The position numbers and the translations under genes are program-made. 64,000 nucleotides of DNA from Gammaproteobacteria bacterium. Its GTDB lineage: Bacteria; Pseudomonadota; Gammaproteobacteria; UBA4575. The notes under the pieces are model-generated. The model searched no databases. It saw only the letters and a program-made list of their open reading frames with translations, and was not told the origin of the DNA. Location of the stretch: positions 10,101 through 74,100 of the forward strand of contig JABDMD010000001.1 of NCBI GenBank assembly GCA_013001685.1, read 5' to 3'. Below, one piece after another: positions 5,081 through 56,329 of this stretch; positions within the stretch are counted from its first letter, which is position 1; every line of letters begins with the position of its first letter.

Positions 5081-5374
5081 ATGCATCAGTTAAATAATAA
5101 TTCCATCATTGAGTCTATCGGTGAATTTTTCTCCGAATTATCCCCGCAGGCTCTTGCTTTAATTGTCGGAATTTGCACTGCAGGTCTTTATGTAGTCGGT
5201 GGGTTACTCATAGCATTTATAGTTGGTTTACTAGCCTTGGGTGTTACCAAATTTGGCCCAATAATAACTAGTCTATGTGGTTTACTGCTTGCAGGATTTT
5301 CAATGTACGTCTTTTTCAAAGCAGTTCTTAATTATAAAAAGATAATACTGAGTTACGAAAATCATAACACTTGA
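5081..5374 (+). CDS. small integral membrane protein
   Basis: 97 aa with 2-3 TM helices. Confidence 0.4.
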   Translation: MHQLNNNSIIESIGEFFSELSPQALALIVGICTAGLYVVGGLLIAFIVGLLALGVTKFGPIITSLCGLLLAGFSMYVFFKAVLNYKKIILSYENHNT

Positions 5375-21533: not shown

Positions 21534-21553
21534 TTATTAACGTTTTGTAAATC

Positions 21554-21588
21554 AAAAACGCCGAATTATTATTCGGCGTTTTTTATTT
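21554..21588 (+). terminator. Rho-independent terminator of hppA
   Basis: aaaaaCGCCGAATtattATTCGGCGtttttt. Confidence 0.7.
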
Positions 21589-21643
21589 AAAATTAGTGCC
21601 GATAAACGAATCAAGATTTTCGCCTACAACCCAATTCGGACAT

Positions 21644-21676
21644 TTAAAAAAAGCCCCATTAAAAATAAAGGGCTTG
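21644..21676 (-). terminator. Rho-independent terminator (minus strand)
   Basis: Minus-strand reading: AAGCCC-13 nt loop-GGGCTT followed by a T7 run. Lies 10 nt after the formamidase-fragment stop. Confidence 0.55.
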
Positions 21677-21685
21677 AGGATACTA

Positions 21686-21829
21686 TTAGGAGGAGTGTAA
21701 AACTCGAAATTCATCACCAGGTTTAACAGTTCGCGAAAATGGAATATCCGGATGCCAACGATTGTGTAATACATCAGCTTGTTCTTCGAGGGTTTTATTA
21801 AAATCAAACTCAATTAACATTTCGATCAT
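21686..21829 (-). pseudogene. acetamidase/formamidase (FmdA_AmdA family) N-terminal remnant
   Basis: A 47-codon ORF (below the track size cutoff; in a different frame from the track's 21583..21813 TTG ORF) reads MIEMLIEFDFNKTLEEQADVLHNRWHPDIPFSRTVKPGDEFRV-LHSS*. The HNRWHPD(I/L)P...VKPGDEFRV block is the conserved FmdA N-terminus as I recall it; the sequence diverges and stops where the catalytic domain should begin. Confidence 0.45.
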
Positions 21830-22134
21830 TCCTACTGAACTCCTATATATTATTCTTTAATCACCCTTTATTAATTTTAGGAATAAAGAGTGGATAAGTT
21901 TTATAGCGCAGGATTCGTGCCATAAATCAGAAACTATTAGAGCAAGCATATACATAGTTCTATATGCACTAAAACAATTTTATGCGCACTTAACAAAGGA
22001 AGAAATTTATTTAATATAATCAAACTATTCACATTAAGCACTAAATAAGTGCCTTACTTAATTTTTTAATATTAGGTTGATTATTTCGAACGGAAATGCC
22101 CGCTTTATATAAGTGGATATTATAGGTTTACTAT

Positions 22135-23460
22135 TTAAGCATGCGAACTATGTTGGCGTGAACGATTGCCTGTTCGTCCTTGGTTGTTTGAACGACCCTT
22201 ATATGGAGACGATGGCGATGGCCGCTGTTTTTTCCTAGAACTAGATTGTTTGTTTCTTGAAGAATTTTTCACACCTAGCCGCTGTTGATTTCGACCCATG
22301 GTAATCGGTTGTGCTTTTATAGTCGGATCTGGCTCAAAGTTTTCTATGATTACTTTCGGTATTTCAATCTTAATAAGGCGTTCAATGTCTTTTAATAACT
22401 TTGCTTCGTCTATACACACTAACGATACGGCTTCACCTTCATGACCCGCACGCCCAGTTCGGCCAATACGATGTATATAGTCTTCTGGAACATGAGGTAA
22501 TTCATAATTCACTACGTGTGGAAGCTGGCTTATGTCCAAACCTCGTGCTGCAATATCGGTTGCAACTAATATTCTCACATTCCCGGATTTAAAATTTGCT
22601 AATGCTTTAGTACGTGCACCCTGGCTCTTACCGCCATGAATAGCGGCAGCATTCAATCCATCCTTAATTAATGCTAGCGCAAGACGATCACAATTACGTT
22701 TTGTACGTGCAAACACTAAAACCTGTTTCCAATTTCCAGATCCAATCAGCAGAGAAAGTAATTTACGTTTTTTCTTACTATCAACCGGATGTACCACTTG
22801 TGTGACTCGTTCAGCCGCAGTATTACGTTGTGCAACTTCAATAAGATCAGGCTTATGGAGTAAGTTGTCAGCTAGCCGTTTAATATCGTTCGAAAACGTA
22901 GCCGAGAACAACAAGGTCTGTTTTTTCTTCGGTAACAGCTTCATAACTTTGCGAATATCATGAATAAAACCCATGTCTAACATGCGATCTGCTTCATCCA
23001 GCACCAGAATTTCTACCCTGGAAAGATCAATTGTAGTTTGACTCACGTGATCTAACAGTCTGCCTGGTGTTGCCACCAGAATATCTACACCATCACGAAG
23101 TTTTTTAATTTGAGGATTAATGCTTACTCCACCGAATACTGCGGCAGAACGAAGCGGCAAATATTTGCCGTACACGCGCACACTTTCAGTGACTTGCGCA
23201 GCCAGTTCACGGGTTGGCGTTAGCACTAAAGCCCGAATTGCACGACGACCCTTTTCTGGTTTACTCGACATTAAACGTTGTAACAATGGCAAAGTAAAAC
23301 CAGCGGTTTTACCCGTTCCGGTTTGCGCGCCACCCATGAGATCTCGCCCATCCAAAATAGGCGGAATGGCTTGGGATTGTATGGGTGTAGGTGTGCGGTA
23401 GCCTTTTTCAGACGCAGCACGGAGCAATTCGGTTCTTAAACCGAGTGATTCAAATGACAT
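22135..23460 (-). CDS. rhlE: ATP-dependent DEAD-box RNA helicase
   Basis: Q-motif, AQTGTGKT (motif I), [15 protein letters not shown], and an Arg/Ser-rich basic C-terminal tail. Confidence 0.85.
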
Positions 23461-46880: not shown

Positions 46881-47306
46881 ATGAAACACATCATAACTGC
46901 GCTTCTCATTTCACCTGCATTATTAAGTGTTGCACATGCAGAATCATCAAATGTAGAAAAATATAAGCAAGTCTACGTTGAACAAATCACTCCGATTCTA
47001 AAAAAACAGTTTGTAGATGCGTTAGCAACAGAAGCAGACCCTGAAGCGAAACTCTCTTTTGTTGCCAATGGCATGGCGAACTGCCAAGTTGAAACCATAA
47101 GTGCCTACCCACAAAAATATCAAGATGCTTCCATCAACCCCGTTGCTGAAGGTGGAGATTTAAGTGAAGTCACAAAGCAAGTAAATAAAATGATCAAAGC
47201 TGATATCGAAAGCGGCGCGATTTCAGAAGAAGATTTTAAAGCCATGGTAGAAAGTGCGACAGAAAAGTATATTAACTGTACAAAGGCGCTTGAAAAACAG
47301 CTTTAA
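46881..47306 (+). CDS. secreted alpha-helical protein
   Basis: Signal peptide MKHIITALLISPALLSVAHA; 3-nt gap from the previous gene. Confidence 0.45.
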   Translation: MKHIITALLISPALLSVAHAESSNVEKYKQVYVEQITPILKKQFVDALATEADPEAKLSFVANGMANCQVETISAYPQKYQDASINPVAEGGDLSEVTKQVNKMIKADIESGAISEEDFKAMVESATEKYINCTKALEKQL

Positions 47307-47316
47307 TATAAAGAGC

Positions 47317-47350
47317 TAATGTCCGCTTTCGGCCAGTAGTAATCATCATT
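47317..47350. repeat. direct repeat copy A (TAATGTCCGCTTTCGGCCAGTAGTAATCATCATT)
   Basis: About 70% identical to copy B at 47788-47819; the pair brackets the cupin-like gene. Confidence 0.4.
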
Positions 47351-47415
47351 AGTTTGTGTTATCAACGATTTGACTCGGGTACGAAATTTCAAGAATTATG
47401 CAACCAGTCTCTGTT

Positions 47416-47727
47416 TTAAATGGACCGTGAACTTCTCCAAGGGGGTCTGCTTGCATAGCCCCCAACTTCAAACCAAGTTTCAAAAGCCGCATCATAAAGC
47501 TTCCCCTCAATAACCAAAATTTCTTCTGGGTATTCGTGACTCTTTTCACCAAATTTGGATGTGTCTGCACCTGGCTTAAATCGAGTTAGTCTTGTGTAGT
47601 CGCCAGTTGTCTCATCAATGGCTAAAGTTAACTCTTCTGCATACTCTTCCATTCCTTCAATAGGGCTCCATTGATTTTTATTCTCAATTAGCAATGGGTT
47701 CCAATATGTATTAGTCGATTTCGACAT
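47416..47727 (-). CDS. cupin-like small protein, probably frame-split at a C5/G5 homopolymer
   Basis: HEYPEEILVIEG (cupin motif-1-like). The P-x-G-x-x-H motif-2 element (PLGEVH) lies in the adjacent frame (track ORF 47349..47570), immediately after ccccc at 47441-47445. Confidence 0.4.
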   Translation of the reverse strand: MSKSTNTYWNPLLIENKNQWSPIEGMEEYAEELTLAIDETTGDYTRLTRFKPGADTSKFGEKSHEYPEEILVIEGKLYDAAFETWFEVGGYASRPPWRSSRSI

Positions 47728-47787
47728 CGTTTAATTAAATGTGATAGTAAACTTTTGACAATAGTTAAACTCAATTGGTAACAAACC

Positions 47788-47819
47788 GTAATGTCCGCTT
47801 TGGGTCGTTAGCACTCATT
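47788..47819. repeat. direct repeat copy B (TAATGTCCGCTTTGGGTCGTTAGCACTCATTC)
   Basis: See copy A. Confidence 0.4.
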
Positions 47820-49024
47820 CAACGTGCGTAAGTAGGTCTATCCTTACCTAACCCCATCGCATGTTTCATAAAAAACTTTTTCACAGGTTGAATTGAATCT
47901 GCTGTTCTCAAAGCCACATTTCTTGCCTTCACTATCGTAGCGTTGCTAGAACCAAACGCTGCCACAAAGGTATCCATCGCACTTTGCATGATTTGTGTTT
48001 CTCCCACCCTAGCACGTTCATACTTCCGTAAAACTTTTAAGCTACCGATATCACGTTTTGCATGTTCTAGAACATCTGTTAACACTGCAGCATCGGTAAA
48101 CCCTAAATTTGCTCCTTGGCCTGCAAGTGGATGAAGTGCATGTGCAGCATCCCCCACAAGTGCAATGCGCGATTGCACCATGCTATCCGCTTGCCCTGAC
48201 ACTAATGGAAAGGCTACACAATTAGACTTTAATGTGATTTTGCCGAGTTGCATGTTGCTAGCTTGAGTCAAAGCATTTGCAAACTCATGTTCATTGAGTT
48301 TCATTAGTTCATCTGCGTAATCTTCGCTCACCGACCAGACAATCGAACATTGGCCATTGTTTAACGGAAGCAATGCTAGTGGCCCAGTAGATAAGAAACG
48401 TTGCCATGCTGTATTTTCATGCGGATGCTCCGTTTCCACTAATGCAACCAAACCCATTTGCTGATAACTTTTTTCAGTGTAAGCAATTTCTGTCAAATTT
48501 CGCACAGTGGAACGACCACCATCTGCACCCACTACTAACTTAGCGGAAATTACACTGCCGCTAGCTAACTCAAGTTCTGCATGATCTTGAAAGGTAATCA
48601 CTTTGCTTATCTGCTCAGGCAAAAACCATTCAACATCACTCTGTTGTTGCAAGTTTTCATGCAAACTAGCTTGAATCACTACGTTTTCTACAATATGCCC
48701 AAGATTATTTCGCTGTAGATCATTCGCATTAAAGTGAATATTAGAATTACCTTTTTCATCCCATACATGCATGTCTGTAAAAGGTGAAACCCGCTTGGAT
48801 TGCATGGCTGACCATGCGCCTACATATTCAAAGATAGCTTGCGAACCTGGGCTTACTGCAGTGACACGTGATTGATAATCTTGATTATCTTTAAATACTT
48901 CGACTTCGCTTCGGTCTACAATTGCAATCGACCTACCTTGTTTAGCTAACAAATTTGCCAGCGTGAGTCCGACTATGCCGGCGCCTACTACGACAACATC
49001 AACTGTTACGTGCTCAGAACACAA
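47819..49024 (-). CDS. ubiI: FAD-dependent ubiquinone-biosynthesis monooxygenase (UbiI/VisC-like)
   Basis: GAGIVGL FAD motif and UbiH/UbiF-family pattern; sits downstream of ubiH as in E. coli ubiH-ubiI. Confidence 0.7.
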   Translation of the reverse strand: MCSEHVTVDVVVVGAGIVGLTLANLLAKQGRSIAIVDRSEVEVFKDNQDYQSRVTAVSPGSQAIFEYVGAWSAMQSKRVSPFTDMHVWDEKGNSNIHFNANDLQRNNLGHIVENVVIQASLHENLQQQSDVEWFLPEQISKVITFQDHAELELASGSVISAKLVVGADGGRSTVRNLTEIAYTEKSYQQMGLVALVETEHPHENTAWQRFLSTGPLALLPLNNGQCSIVWSVSEDYADELMKLNEHEFANALTQASNMQLGKITLKSNCVAFPLVSGQADSMVQSRIALVGDAAHALHPLAGQGANLGFTDAAVLTDVLEHAKRDIGSLKVLRKYERARVGETQIMQSAMDTFVAAFGSSNATIVKARNVALRTADSIQPVKKFFMKHAMGLGKDRPTYAR

Positions 49025-53124: not shown

Positions 53125-53328
53125 CACATGTCGGGTACCACTGCGGTACAGGTGTGCTTCCTGGTATTTCCCTTGAGCCTATTTTTATCCTCCGGGGGCA
53201 ATGCTGTTTAAATGTTGATGTGCATATCCGTTCTGCGGAGAGCCTAATTCATTTTTCGGTGCTCCCACTTGAACCTTTGGTTCAAGGACAACGGCTGCCA
53301 CGGTATTCGTGGGGTACCCACATTTTTA
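53125..53328 (+). ncRNA. ssrS: 6S RNA
   Basis: Immediately after zapA, as in E. coli. The 3' half (CACUUGAACCUUUGGUUCAAGGACAACGGCUGCCACGGUAUUCGUGGGGUACCC) aligns with E. coli 6S (ACCUUGAACCAAGGGUUCAAGGGUUACAGCCUGCGGCGGCAUCUCGGAGA). The closing stem GGGUACC (53133-53139) pairs with GGUACCC (53313-53319), and a T5 run follows. Confidence 0.7.
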
Positions 53329-53367
53329 CAACCAGGCTCTAAATTAAATTTCCAAGGAAACTTTGCG

Positions 53368-53820
53368 ATGCAACATTGGCTTATGAAAAGCGAACCAAGC
53401 GAATTCAGTATTGATGATTTAAAGCGAGTTAAAGTAGAACCCTGGGACGGTGTGCGCAATTATCAAGCACGCAACATGATGAATAAAGAGATGAAAAAAG
53501 GTGATTTAGCCTTTATGTATCATTCCAATTGCGATGAGATTGGAATTGTTGGAATCATGACAATCGCACGTGAAGGTTACGTTGATCACACTGCCTTTGA
53601 CAAAAAGGATAAACACTACGATCCAAAAAGTAATCCTGAAAACCCACGCTGGTTTATGGTTGACGTGCGTTATAAGCGAAAACTAAAACGCACTATTACT
53701 CTTGCGGAATTAAAAGAGCATAAAAAATTAGCCGAAATGCAGTTGTTAAAACGCGGAAACCGACTCTCAATCATGCCGGTTAGCAAAAAACATTGGGATT
53801 TTATTCTCTCTTTAGAGTGA
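53368..53820 (+). CDS. EVE (PUA-like) domain protein
   Basis: MQHWLMKSEP..FSIDDL start, with an SD 8 nt upstream; EVE-domain pattern throughout. Confidence 0.75.
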   Translation: MQHWLMKSEPSEFSIDDLKRVKVEPWDGVRNYQARNMMNKEMKKGDLAFMYHSNCDEIGIVGIMTIAREGYVDHTAFDKKDKHYDPKSNPENPRWFMVDVRYKRKLKRTITLAELKEHKKLAEMQLLKRGNRLSIMPVSKKHWDFILSLE

Positions 53821-54262
53821 TTTTTTACAGAAAATTGTAAAAATTTTTGTAATTTTTTCTAAATTTCGCAAAAAAACTAGTTTTTTTAAAAAAATTTACA
53901 GTTTTTTTAATATTTTTTAAAAAAAATTTCGCATTGTTTTTCTACATTAAATTACGTTTTATTAATTAAAAAAACGTTGCAAACAAACTACAAAATTTCA
54001 GTAAACTTTGCTTAATTTTAGCAAAATGCTTGTTGTTATGTTAAATAAATAGCGATTTTTACTGTTTTCCAGGTGAATACTGTCACACTTTTTGAAACTT
54101 AAAAAACGTTTTGTAAATTTTAAAACTAAAAAAGTTTAACAAACTAAAAAACATTAACGATGGAAAGCTATAAAAACACTACAAAAATACTAGTATTTAT
54201 AGATTAAATATATATACTTTGGCGCGTTTACAACTAACATTAATTGTTTGGAGGGAGTATTG
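53821..54262 (+). promoter_or_regulatory. ORF-free A/T-tract (predicted curved) region upstream of the H1-like gene
   Basis: Alternating A- and T-tracts at about 10-bp spacing. Duplicated motifs AAATTTCGCA (x2) and AACAAACTA(C)AAAA (x2). Ends with the SD GGAGGG. Confidence 0.4.
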
Positions 54263-54619
54263 ATGGCCATCAAACGTAAATCTACCACTAAACGTCGCGT
54301 TACAAAACGTAAGGCGACTAAACGTAAGGCTACGAAACGCAAATCTACTGCGAAGCGCAAAACTGCGAAACGCAAGACTAAGCGTAAAACAAAACGTAAG
54401 ACTACTAAACGTAAGACTGCGAAGCGTAAGACTAAACGTAAGACTGCGAAGCGTAAGACTAAGCGTAAGACTGCGAAGCGCAAGACTGCGAAGCGTAAGA
54501 CTAAGCGCAAGACTGCAAAGCGTAAGGTCAAACGTAAGACTAAACGCAAGACTGCAAAGCGTAAGGTCAAACGTAAGACTACTAAACGCAAAACTAAGCG
54601 GAAGACTAAACGTCGTTGA
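54263..54619 (+). CDS. histone H1-like lysine-rich nucleoid protein
   Basis: 118 aa made of KRKT(A/K)KRK units (MAIKRKSTTKRRVTKRKATKRK...), with a strong SD and a terminator. Resembles Hc1/Hq1/BpH1/AlgP-type proteins. Confidence 0.75.
   Translation: MAIKRKSTTKRRVTKRKATKRKATKRKSTAKRKTAKRKTKRKTKRKTTKRKTAKRKTKRKTAKRKTKRKTAKRKTAKRKTKRKTAKRKVKRKTKRKTAKRKVKRKTTKRKTKRKTKRR
54380..54600 (+). repeat. coding tandem repeats (27-bp and 39-bp units)
   Basis: aaacgtaagactgcgaagcgtaagact x2; cgcaagactgcaaagcgtaaggtcaaacgtaagact x2; further degenerate 12/15-bp units. Confidence 0.6.
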
Positions 54620-54643
54620 TAGTCGCTGGATTAAACATCCAAA

Positions 54644-54677
54644 CAAAAAAGGGCTCTTAATAGAGCCCTTTTTTTAT
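54644..54677. terminator. bidirectional Rho-independent terminator (H1-like gene / ilvA)
   Basis: aaaaaaGGGCTCTTaaTAGAGCCCttttttt. The A-tract and T-tract on either side let it act on both strands. Confidence 0.7.
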
Positions 54678-54814: not shown

Positions 54815-56329
54815 TTAGCCAAGGAAAAGTTTATACACTGGATTGCTGGTTTCTTCCCAATATCGATAACCTAATTTTTCTAAAAACTCATCAAAACGAG
54901 AGCGCTGGGAATCAGGCACCTGTATGCCAACCAACACACGCCCATATGCAGCACCATGGTTACGATAGTGAAATAAACTTATATTCCAGTCAGTACCTAT
55001 CGTTTCTAAAAATTTTAATAACGCACCAGGGCGTTCTGGGAATTCAAATCTAAATAGGATCTCATCTTGTATCTGAGTACAGTGTCCACCCACCATATGA
55101 CGCAAATGCAAAATCGCCATTTCATTATCCGAAATATCCAGTGCCGCATAACCATCGGTATTCATAGCTTTTAGTAGCTGCTCTTTTTCCTTATCAGCAT
55201 CCTCGACTTTCACACCAACAAAAATATGTGCAGCTTGGTTATCCGCATAACGATAGTTAAACTCGGTAATTCCGCGTGCACCCAGGATTCGACAGAACTT
55301 CAAAAAACTACCTGGCTGCTCTGGAATAGTTACGGCAAATAAACATTCACGACGTTCACCTAGCTCAGCACGCTCGGCAACATGACGTAAACGATCGAAG
55401 TTGATGTTCGCACCACAATTGATCCCGACTAAAGTCTGCCTGGTAACTTTTTCTCTGGAAATATATTGTTTAATACCGGCTAAAGATAAAGCACCTGCAG
55501 GTTCTACCAATGTACGTGTTTCATCAAAGATATCTTTGATCCCAGCACAGATATCATCGGTGGTTACTAGCAGCACTTCATCGATAAGATCTTTGGCAAT
55601 TGCATAGGTTTTTTCACCTATTTGCCGTACTGCAACCCCGTCAGCAAATATGCCTACTTGCTCTAATTCGACTCTTTTCTGAGCTTTTAACGCAGCATGC
55701 ATGGTGGGTGCATCTTGCGGCTCTACCCCGATTATCTTTATTTCTGGTCGATAATGCTTGATGTAGGCTGCCATTCCGGCTACTAAACCACCACCGCCAA
55801 TTGCGATAAATATGGCATCAATTTTCCCTGGATGCTGCTTTAGTATTTCCATCGCGATCGTACCCTGCCCAGCAATCACATCTTCATCATCATAAGGATG
55901 CACATAGATAAGATTTTGTTGCTCAGCTAGTTGCAAAGAGTGCTGATGTGCTTCGTCATAGGTATCACCAAACAAAATGGCTTTGCCGCCTAAGCGAGTT
56001 ACCGATTCAACTTTGATATTGGGTGTTGTCGTCGGCATCACAATAGTTGCAGGAATTCCAAGTTTATTTGCAGCTAATGCCACACCTTGCGCATGATTAC
56101 CGGCAGATGCAGCAATTACGCCTTGTTTACGTTCTGCTGCAGAGAGATGTGCGATTTTGTTGTAAGCCCCCCTGAGCTTGAAAGAAAAGACACTTTGCAA
56201 GTCTTCTCGTTTCAGATAAATATTATTAGCAAGTCGCGCCGAGATAACTTTTGCATGGTCAAGTGGCGTTACAATCGCCACATCATAGACCTTGGAATTT
56301 TCTATTTTTTTAATTAGTTGCTGATTCAC
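54815..56329 (-). CDS. ilvA: biosynthetic threonine dehydratase
   Basis: 504 aa. PLP fold-II domain (SFKLRGA) plus two C-terminal ACT-like regulatory domains. Confidence 0.85.
   Translation of the reverse strand: MNQQLIKKIENSKVYDVAIVTPLDHAKVISARLANNIYLKREDLQSVFSFKLRGAYNKIAHLSAAERKQGVIAASAGNHAQGVALAANKLGIPATIVMPTTTPNIKVESVTRLGGKAILFGDTYDEAHQHSLQLAEQQNLIYVHPYDDEDVIAGQGTIAMEILKQHPGKIDAIFIAIGGGGLVAGMAAYIKHYRPEIKIIGVEPQDAPTMHAALKAQKRVELEQVGIFADGVAVRQIGEKTYAIAKDLIDEVLLVTTDDICAGIKDIFDETRTLVEPAGALSLAGIKQYISREKVTRQTLVGINCGANINFDRLRHVAERAELGERRECLFAVTIPEQPGSFLKFCRILGARGITEFNYRYADNQAAHIFVGVKVEDADKEKEQLLKAMNTDGYAALDISDNEMAILHLRHMVGGHCTQIQDEILFRFEFPERPGALLKFLETIGTDWNISLFHYRNHGAAYGRVLVGIQVPDSQRSRFDEFLEKLGYRYWEETSNPVYKLFLG

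Follow-up and report, generated by a model that had tools for sequence, protein, structure and literature searches.

A decaying cupin gene between two palindromic repeats downstream of ubiI, probably a recently acquired cassette of an uncultured gammaproteobacterium

Introduction

How does a small gene come to lie, broken, between two repeats directly behind a housekeeping gene? The question is raised by positions 47317 to 47819 of a 64,000-nt stretch (the window) from a gammaproteobacterium of lineage UBA4575 (assembly GCA_013001685.1, contig JABDMD010000001.1, positions 10,101 to 74,100). Two overlapping minus-strand open reading frames (ORFs) in different frames follow the ubiI gene there. 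A sequence-only reading of this DNA had proposed that they are one cupin gene of about 127 aa, split by a homopolymer indel, bracketed by imperfect direct repeats, and now decaying as a small inserted cassette. We report here that the ORFs are the remains of a single Cupin_7 gene lying between two degenerate copies of a palindromic element, and that this unit is very probably a recently acquired single-gene cassette that is now dead. The earlier observation is confirmed, and its interpretation is supported with corrections of detail.

Results

A Cupin_7 gene broken by one additional base

The two minus-strand ORFs were found exactly where the sequence-only reading had them, at 47416..47727 (103 aa, frame A) and 47349..47570 (73 aa, frame B). 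Frame A codes for residues 1-96 and then runs through 7 out-of-frame codons; frame B, with its stop at 47349..47351, holds the last ~29 codons of the ancestral protein. Joined, they give a single protein, as had been proposed, of 125 aa rather than about 127. The rejoined protein matches Cupin_7 (PF12973, ChrR cupin-like) at 41.6 bits over model positions 13-98, against 29.4 bits over positions 12-80 for frame A alone; both scores exceed the Pfam gathering cut-off of 27 bits. A protein collection search returned 2924 homologues of the rejoined protein. The best are 121-127 aa long, 70-82% identical and colinear end to end, with 95-100% query coverage, which bears out a single gene split by a 1-nt indel. 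Homologues are annotated as cupin domain-containing, quercetin dioxygenase-like or hypothetical proteins, and no biochemical function was found among these annotations.

The nearest solved structure is the ChrR-type cupin 3o14 (E = 8e-4). Solved Cupin_2 proteins, the family first suggested, match at E ~0.05-0.7 only. The two ORFs are thus one broken 125-aa Cupin_7 gene, and not a Cupin_2 gene. Motif 1 (H-x..E) and motif 2 (G-x4-P-x-G-x2-H) are both present in the rejoined protein. No single reading frame contains the whole of motif 2 (GYASRPPGEVH): the extra base at 47439/47440 leaves part of it in frame A and part in frame B. In intact homologues the junction reads ...YASRPPGEVHGPF (in a longer extract, ...GDYASRPPGEVHGPFKTE...), and the ancestral junction is YASRPPGEVH (PPG). 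Together with the corrected position of the indel, described below, the intact homologues therefore give a restored protein reading ...YASRPPGEVHG, and the junction RPLGEVH of the sequence-only reading has to be replaced by RPPGEVH. The window gene is like stand-alone Cupin_7/ChrR-like proteins (PF12973; 3o14) in its above-cut-off match, its colinearity and both its motifs, and differs from them in being broken by a 1-nt insertion.

The plus strand carries homopolymers at 47441-47445 (G5) and 47459-47463 (C5). The lesion in the window is one extra T on the minus strand (an extra A on the plus strand, 47439/47440). It adjoins the minus-strand C5 run directly on its 3' side (CCCCCTTGGAG), and does not lie inside it, where the indel had been placed. 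The minus strand reads CCCCC-TT-GGAG in the window, as against CCCCC-T-GGAG in three sister alleles (L003, L161, L162).

These alleles belong to a set of near-identical loci recovered via exact protein look-up and then aligned (n = 7 sequences, two sublineages). The extra T is common to the window, L001 (Logan assembly SRR23287145), L002 (NCBI metagenome-assembled genome, MAG, GCA_024638735.1) and L163 (Logan assembly SRR12825418). These four assemblies come from different samples and pipelines and differ mutually at other positions; L001 has an additional AC near the cupin 3' end. The other three alleles are damaged in other ways. L003 has TGG changed to TAG at W20 (Trp20), and L162 combines a +A frameshift at codon 77 with a start codon mutated from ATG to ATA. 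The G5 run of L161 is one G short, so that the suspicion of a homopolymer indel fits this allele and not the window. A 29-nt deletion in the leader is common to L161 and L162.

No intact cupin copy was found among the seven near-identical loci (0/7), and at least four of their inactivating lesions are independent. In sequences differing by 2% or less, so many independent events cannot be assembly noise, and show that the gene is no longer under selection. The gene is really decaying, as the sequence-only reading had supposed, and its damage is not an assembly error. From window to L003, the cupin diverges by 1.85%, and ubiH, ubiI, g141, g163 and pbp by 0.8-1.7%. As the cupin divergence is at or slightly above that of the neighbouring genes, the decay is recent. 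The pseudogene would no longer have a functional product.

Two degenerate copies of a palindromic element

The features of the locus are as follows.

47819..49024, minus strand: ubiI-like FAD-dependent ubiquinone hydroxylase gene (TIGR01988, 430.9 bits, and FAD_binding_3)
47789..47819, minus strand: upstream copy of the palindromic element, type 1, centre CGACCC, AATGAGTGCTAACGACCCAAAGCGGACATTA (R1 model and consensus comparison)
47728..47788, minus strand: 61-nt leader from the upstream element to the cupin ATG (alignment with the leader of the L004 cassette)
47349..47727, minus strand: Cupin_7 pseudogene, frames A and B (Pfam, homologue alignment, sister alleles)
47439..47440, minus strand: lesion, AA on the plus strand (TT on the minus strand) against a single base in sister alleles (allele alignments)
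47317..47347, minus strand: downstream copy of the palindromic element, type 2, centre TGGCCG, GATGATTACTACTGGCCGAAAGCGGACATTA (R1 model and consensus comparison)
46881..47306, plus strand: convergent gene for a 141-aa secreted protein without a family match (ORF list, Pfam, synteny)

The imperfect direct repeats of the sequence-only reading exist and abut the neighbouring stop codons. The TGA stop codon of ubiI overlaps the first base of the upstream copy, and the downstream copy starts 1 nt past the frame-B stop and lies 10 nt from the stop of the convergent 141-aa gene. Both are degenerate copies of a 28-31-nt imperfect palindrome, ATGACCGCT-N10-AGCGGACAT, whose consensus is AATGACCGCTAACGACCCAAAGCGGACATTA for type 1 and AATGACCGCTATTGGCCGAAAGCGGACATTA for type 2. 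They share the exact 13-mer TAATGTCCGCTTT (47317-47329 and 47789-47801) and agree at 24/32 positions by manual count. The two 13-mers are the sole matches in 64 kb at up to one mismatch (0.18 expected), and an equally good pair within 600 nt occurred 0.07 times per window in 100 Markov-1 simulations.

A covariance model, R1, was built from 18 element copies. In the 64 kb it finds only two strong matches, and both flank the one non-syntenic gene. The upstream copy scores 49.3 bits (fold z = 0.09); it is 2 positions off the consensus of locus L010, no shuffle comes within 9 mismatches, and its left arm is degenerate. The downstream copy scores 41.4 bits (fold z = -0.5); it is 5 positions off the type-2 consensus, with a badly degenerate left arm lying against the cupin stop codons. 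The window repeats thus belong to a palindromic repeat family for which REP-like (repetitive extragenic palindrome) is the closest description.

A stem of 9-10 bp, interrupted by one conserved A.A mismatch, can form in consensus copies, and 91% of the pair cells across the 18 copies are paired. The L010 copy folds at -10.9 kcal/mol (z = -3.6), whereas the window copies fold no better than shuffled sequence. T.G wobble pairs of the element lie on the gene-sense strand. We also considered type 2 as an inverted type 1 and rejected it, since the direct alignment has 4 mismatches and the reverse complement 7; the C.A/T.G pattern leaves some doubt. Rfam gave no relevant family for the locus and seven element-rich loci, and a full-text literature search for the arm sequences returned chance primer matches only.

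A scan of 47200-47950 for promoters and terminators gave nothing above shuffle expectation and no terminator, and a sigma-70-like site was not found in the minus-strand leader (47728..47788). There is no tRNA or tmRNA within the 64-kb window that could have served as an integration target. No integron integrase family occurs among the scanned flanking ORFs; the remaining 64 kb was inspected by eye only.

Apart from the two strong matches, a weak element-like remnant, ATATCCACTTATATAAAGCGGGCATTT, lies at 22092-22123 on the minus strand (R1 17.3 bits, E = 0.019). The stop of a DEAD-box helicase gene (22135-23460) lies 11 nt before it, and a ~600-nt stretch poor in genes (21534-22134) has its edge here; the sequence may be the leftover of another slot.

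A variable slot behind ubiI

We compared the junction downstream of ubiI in relatives by a UbiI search with one genome per species. It yielded 11 related loci (L005-L015) in MAGs labelled Thiotrichales or Gammaproteobacteria, with UbiI 62-86% identical. The order pepP-ubiH-ubiI is kept in all of them (11/11), and tblastn found a cupin downstream of ubiI in none (0/11). In L007, the homologue of the convergent 141-aa gene, itself the conserved downstream neighbour as ubiI is the upstream one, directly abuts ubiI: it lies 51 nt after it, with one degenerate repeat copy between. A cupin gain in the window lineage is therefore the parsimonious reading, in agreement with the inserted cassette that had been proposed.

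The interval from ubiI to g141/pbp has different content in each relative, so that it is a hypervariable slot. It holds single 110-126-aa ORFs without a family match, or an HNH_3 protein and an 85-aa ORF. An opposite-strand 115-aa ORF in the slot presumably encodes a MarR-type regulator, and other slot genes look acyltransferase-like, an assignment that we assume from their sequence. The other genes at the locus are pepP, ubiH, ABC-transporter genes and genes for proteins without a family match. The 141-aa secreted protein, also without a family match, has tandem paralogues in some relatives (L005 5871-6716; L009 7939-8816).

The element accompanies these contents. In L006, L009 and L012, copies are found at the ubiI stop codon or close to it, and L010 and L014 have arrays. 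A 126-aa ORF in L009 and a 114-aa ORF in L012 stand each between two elements, L010 has two 110-aa ORFs each bracketed in this way, and L014 has several copies. Among marine copies, 12/25 start -5 to +1 nt from the stop of the preceding same-strand ORF, and after type-1 copies the next start codon typically follows 8-23 nt later. All ORFs between elements are on the same strand as the elements. Their products are mostly without a family match, with HNH_3, BLUF and FadL in addition. Marine copies all score higher on the gene-sense strand; the orientation of near-perfect soil palindromes, described below, is ambiguous.

Two further sequences are associated with the element in relatives, and both are absent from the window. 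A second repeat, GTGAGCACAGGATGTGCGAATATGAGTCGTATCAGGGACGATACG, forming small hairpins with AGGA-type loops, occurs in L014 (1102-1160, 2198-2256) and L011 (about 5225-5290). The left half of the palindromic element runs into this repeat immediately behind CCAAAG, as though the repeat had been inserted there. A conserved ~52-nt linker (AAGGGGAATCTTGGTTGGAAACTC...TAAAAT) precedes type-1 copies in L010 (3140-3191, about 2672-2711) and L099 (3276-3327, minus strand). It resembles a sigma-70 promoter (TTGGAA, 17 nt, TAAAAT) whose -10 box overlaps the element start.

Elsewhere in the window, a tandem array of ~20 units of 12-15 nt (AAGCGTAAGACT-like; TRF periods 15, 27, 39, 42, 69) occupies 54305-54608. 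It lies between an EVE-domain gene (53269-53820, plus strand) and a 504-aa gene (54815-56329, minus strand), which we take to encode a threonine dehydratase. An ORF overlapping the array (54197-54646, minus strand) matches nothing in Pfam and is probably spurious.

The same unit in a second context and the distribution of the element

The closest intact cupin, P0001 (82% identical), is found in another MAG (GCA_037387285.1, locus L004), with an SDF-family transporter gene on one side and a MarC gene on the other. Two element copies bracket this cupin, too. Its leader has 59 nt against 61 nt in the window, and the two leaders are partly alignable, most clearly in the last ~25 nt before the ATG. 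DNA similarity between window and L004 extends over the upstream element, the leader, the gene, the downstream element and ~10 nt beyond; the flanks are then unrelated. The search for further copies of the repeat, suggested by the sequence-only reading, thus shows the element around other small ORFs in relatives and around this cupin; frame A is not an intact protein in orthologues.

In five other genomes, cupin homologues occur in other housekeeping contexts (ruvA|ruvB, asd|PNP, Lnb_N|JmjC, others), and no element was found near them. The cupin gene therefore does not include the element as a part of its own. It is a frequent traveller, which in this clade moves in element-bounded form. In the homologue between ruvA and ruvB (L139 2120-2150), the upstream spacer contains a perfect hairpin of another sequence, TGTTAATGGGGAA-AGG-TTCCCCATTAACA; beside the cupin gene, the palindromes in use may differ between lineages.

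An exact-pattern scan found the element pattern in at least 120 metagenome contigs, and most among the matches listed are from soil, with GC 54-60%. The soil consensus is a perfect 11-6-11 palindrome, ATGTCCGCTTT-TGACCC-AAAGCGGACAT, with 24/28 positions as in marine type 1; a minority of copies have 7-nt centres. Soil copies occur in tandem mosaic arrays like bacterial interspersed mosaic elements (BIMEs), with TTGCACTGCA-type linkers (L116 2019-2150, 3211-3400; L133, L137, L046, L031). The arrays often directly follow PF04392-type ABC-transporter binding-protein genes ending LLARADEVIE, whose proteins are at most ~50% identical to those of Rhizobiales plasmid genes. Against 72,556 plasmids, blastn with a soil array gave one weak match only. 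Many of the matches listed, 15 of them in viral contigs, are found where contigs end, a pattern to be expected of a repeat that interrupts assembly. In the low-GC marine contigs L099 and L060, elements bracket FadL, BLUF and small ORFs. L099 has five copies in 3.5 kb, against two strong and one weak in the 64-kb window. The GC of the element contexts is 37-41% in marine and 54-60% in soil sequences.

Discussion

The locus is best explained by a recently acquired single-gene cassette that has since died, a reading that we consider highly probable. The ancestral arrangement would be the one retained in L007, that is, ubiI, its stop codon, one ~31-nt palindromic element and the end of the convergent 141-aa gene. 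A segment with a 125-aa stand-alone Cupin_7 (ChrR-like) gene would have entered at or next to the element, leaving the cupin bracketed by two co-oriented copies. The cupin would then have lost its selective value in the population. The window sublineage would have fixed a 1-nt insertion behind which the last ~29 codons, and with them the motif-2 histidine strand, are out of frame, and the sister alleles would have been inactivated in other ways. Both element copies in the window would have decayed as well, their left arms becoming degenerate with no stable hairpin left.

The element itself may have mediated the insertion, by homologous or illegitimate recombination between copies or through an element-specific enzyme. 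Intact copies presumably act as 3'-end hairpins for the preceding gene. We think that the element is most likely REP-like, a 3'-end hairpin that would accumulate in flexible regions and whose copies would give homology or a target for gene gain and loss.

Several observations weigh against this explanation. No recombinase, transposase or RAYT (REP-associated tyrosine transposase) gene was found near the locus, which leaves the mechanism of insertion without an enzyme. L007, the presumed empty site, has a UbiI only 82% identical, and could have lost a cassette. The boundary of the similarity between window and L004 is blurred by ~15% divergence. The element-free contexts of the other cupin homologues indicate that the gene also moves by routes that do not involve the element. 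Lastly, a covariation test on the 18 copies gave no compensatory base-pair changes and no evidence of structure beyond palindromy, so that the hairpin role of the element is based on palindromy.

In an alternative, possible although rather doubtful, the copies are ordinary 3'-end hairpins (REP-like mRNA stabilisers or terminators) of individual genes, the cupin came by general recombination within a flexible region, and the bracketing is a by-product and does not signal insertion by way of the element. The elements point the same way as the gene before them and touch or overlap its stop codon, they separate the ordinary genes FadL and BLUF in L099, and their T.G wobble pairs are on the gene-sense strand. 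That cupin homologues change contexts without the element, and that BIME-like tandem arrays stand after ABC-transporter binding-protein genes in soil contigs, also agrees with it. However, the window has two strong copies only, in 64 kb with ~70 intergenic regions, and both flank the single inserted gene; the element-cupin-element unit recurs in L004. Moreover, the hairpin lacks a T-run behind it, and nothing terminator-like was detected in 47200-47950.

It is also conceivable, though improbable, that a dedicated site-specific recombinase, with its gene elsewhere in the genome, uses the element as its core site, and that the bounded genes are true mobile cassettes, like integron cassettes or the dif modules of Acinetobacter. 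The 11-6-11 layout ATGTCCGCTTT-TGACCC-AAAGCGGACAT of soil copies is the dif-site layout (PMC6449649), and the occurrence of the element-cupin-element unit in two contexts is the argument first used for dif modules (PMC6449649). Relatives carry arrays of co-oriented small ORFs without a family match at a fixed chromosomal slot, and the element is conserved between genomes as unlike as marine ones of GC 37-41% and soil ones of GC 54-60%. Against such a recombinase, none was found in the flanks examined, and the flanking copies are direct repeats, not inverted as in dif modules. In addition, the two copies of a cassette usually differ in their centres (CGACCC and TGGCCG), which would block strand exchange by a classical tyrosine recombinase, and some copies have 7-nt centres. 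E. coli dif, which we take to be GGTGCGCATAATGTATATTATGTTAAAT, has by eye no similarity to the element arms. It would be tempting to go further and propose that the palindrome is the recognition site of an undescribed cassette-exchange system, with its enzyme encoded elsewhere in the genome. Such a system would place single genes after housekeeping-gene stops (here ubiI) in uncultured marine gammaproteobacteria; a close variant would have been amplified in soil bacteria, and the dead cupin would be one captured cassette. We give this extension little credence.

Finally, that the gene is intact or functional, through an assembly error, +1 ribosomal slippage on CCC-C or a working 103-aa frame-A product, is highly improbable: the shift does lie beside a C5 run, CCC-N being a known +1 frameshift-prone context, and frame A is just above the Cupin_7 cut-off (29.4 against 27 bits), but four independent assemblies have the extra base, frame A has neither the motif-2 histidine strand nor the final ~29 residues, which every intact homologue conserves, and the nonsense codon, other frameshifts and lost start of the sister alleles are unexpected under recoding. 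Programmed +1 frameshifting on CCC-C was considered by itself and is rejected in view of the nonsense and start-loss mutations of the sister alleles.

A broken cupin by itself is routine. Taken as a recently acquired cassette, it offers a clean population-level case of an accessory gene lost several times independently soon after its acquisition. The flanking element is of more use: directly behind ubiI, it marks a slot where a clade of uncultured marine bacteria swaps genes, and it is found again around this gene in another genome. If a specific enzyme does act on the element, this would be compact gene shuffling without an integron. Even as nothing more than a REP-like 3' hairpin, the element would account for the broken contigs and the variable small ORFs of these MAGs, and it should be masked in annotation.

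Comparison with known systems

Insertion sequences of the IS200/IS605 family are bounded by hairpins and move as single strands. The unit resembles their ends and their non-autonomous derivatives: it has an imperfect hairpin at each end, the two being alike and pointing the same way, one strand tolerates wobble pairs, and the similarity with L004 extends ~10 nt past the downstream hairpin. Unlike them, it has neither tnpA nor tnpB in the flanks examined; a target tetranucleotide is not defined, and nothing points to transposition.

attC sites are much longer than 28-31 nt. The element is a simple palindrome of this length, without R/L boxes or AAC...GTT ends; no RYYYAAC or GTTRRRY was read at its ends in the alignment. 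There is no intI next to the array and no Rfam match. According to PMC4889954, attC sites contain R and L boxes and extrahelical bases. Integron cassettes and clusters of attC sites lacking integron-integrases (CALINs) are alike in having co-oriented small ORFs, each followed by a palindromic repeat, at a fixed variable slot, as in L009, L010, L012 and L014 (PMC4889954). The comparison with integrons fails because of the site structure and the absent integrase. Of the two origins that the sequence-only reading had allowed for the repeats, the attC-like one is abandoned on these grounds, and the REP-like one stands with the bracketing in relatives and in L004.

The dif sites have 28 bp, with 11-bp arms and a 6-bp centre (PMC6449649). 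Acinetobacter dif modules, flanked by such XerC/XerD (pdif) sites, are similar in their 28-nt 11-6-11 core and in the finding of a site-flanked module in a second context (PMC6449649). In our element, the copies flank the gene as direct and not inverted repeats, the whole arm and not the inner part alone is palindromic and conserved, and the arms do not resemble XerC/XerD binding sequences. Its setting is the chromosome of uncultured marine bacteria. The comparison with dif modules thus fails on the sequence, the orientation of the flanking sites and the differing centres.

The closest likeness is to REP elements, which are repetitive extragenic palindromes mobilised by RAYT transposases (PMC3116915, PMC3337134). 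Like REPs, BIMEs and REPINs (REP doublets forming hairpins), the element is a short imperfect extragenic palindrome found at 3' ends in many copies. It forms tandem mosaic arrays in soil contigs and breaks assemblies. It has no evident GTAG-type 5' head, it typically overlaps, with its 5' end, the stop codon of the ORF before it, and no RAYT gene was identified near the locus. Marine copies are single and co-oriented, in contrast to REPINs, which are inverted REP pairs with a short spacer (PMC3337134). The nearly identical 28-nt sequence in very different genomes also differs from REPIN-RAYT systems, which are mostly vertically inherited according to a preprint (bioRxiv 10.1101/2022.05.22.493013). 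Taken together, the bracketing element and the slot next to ubiI represent a modestly novel variant of known repeat and cassette themes.

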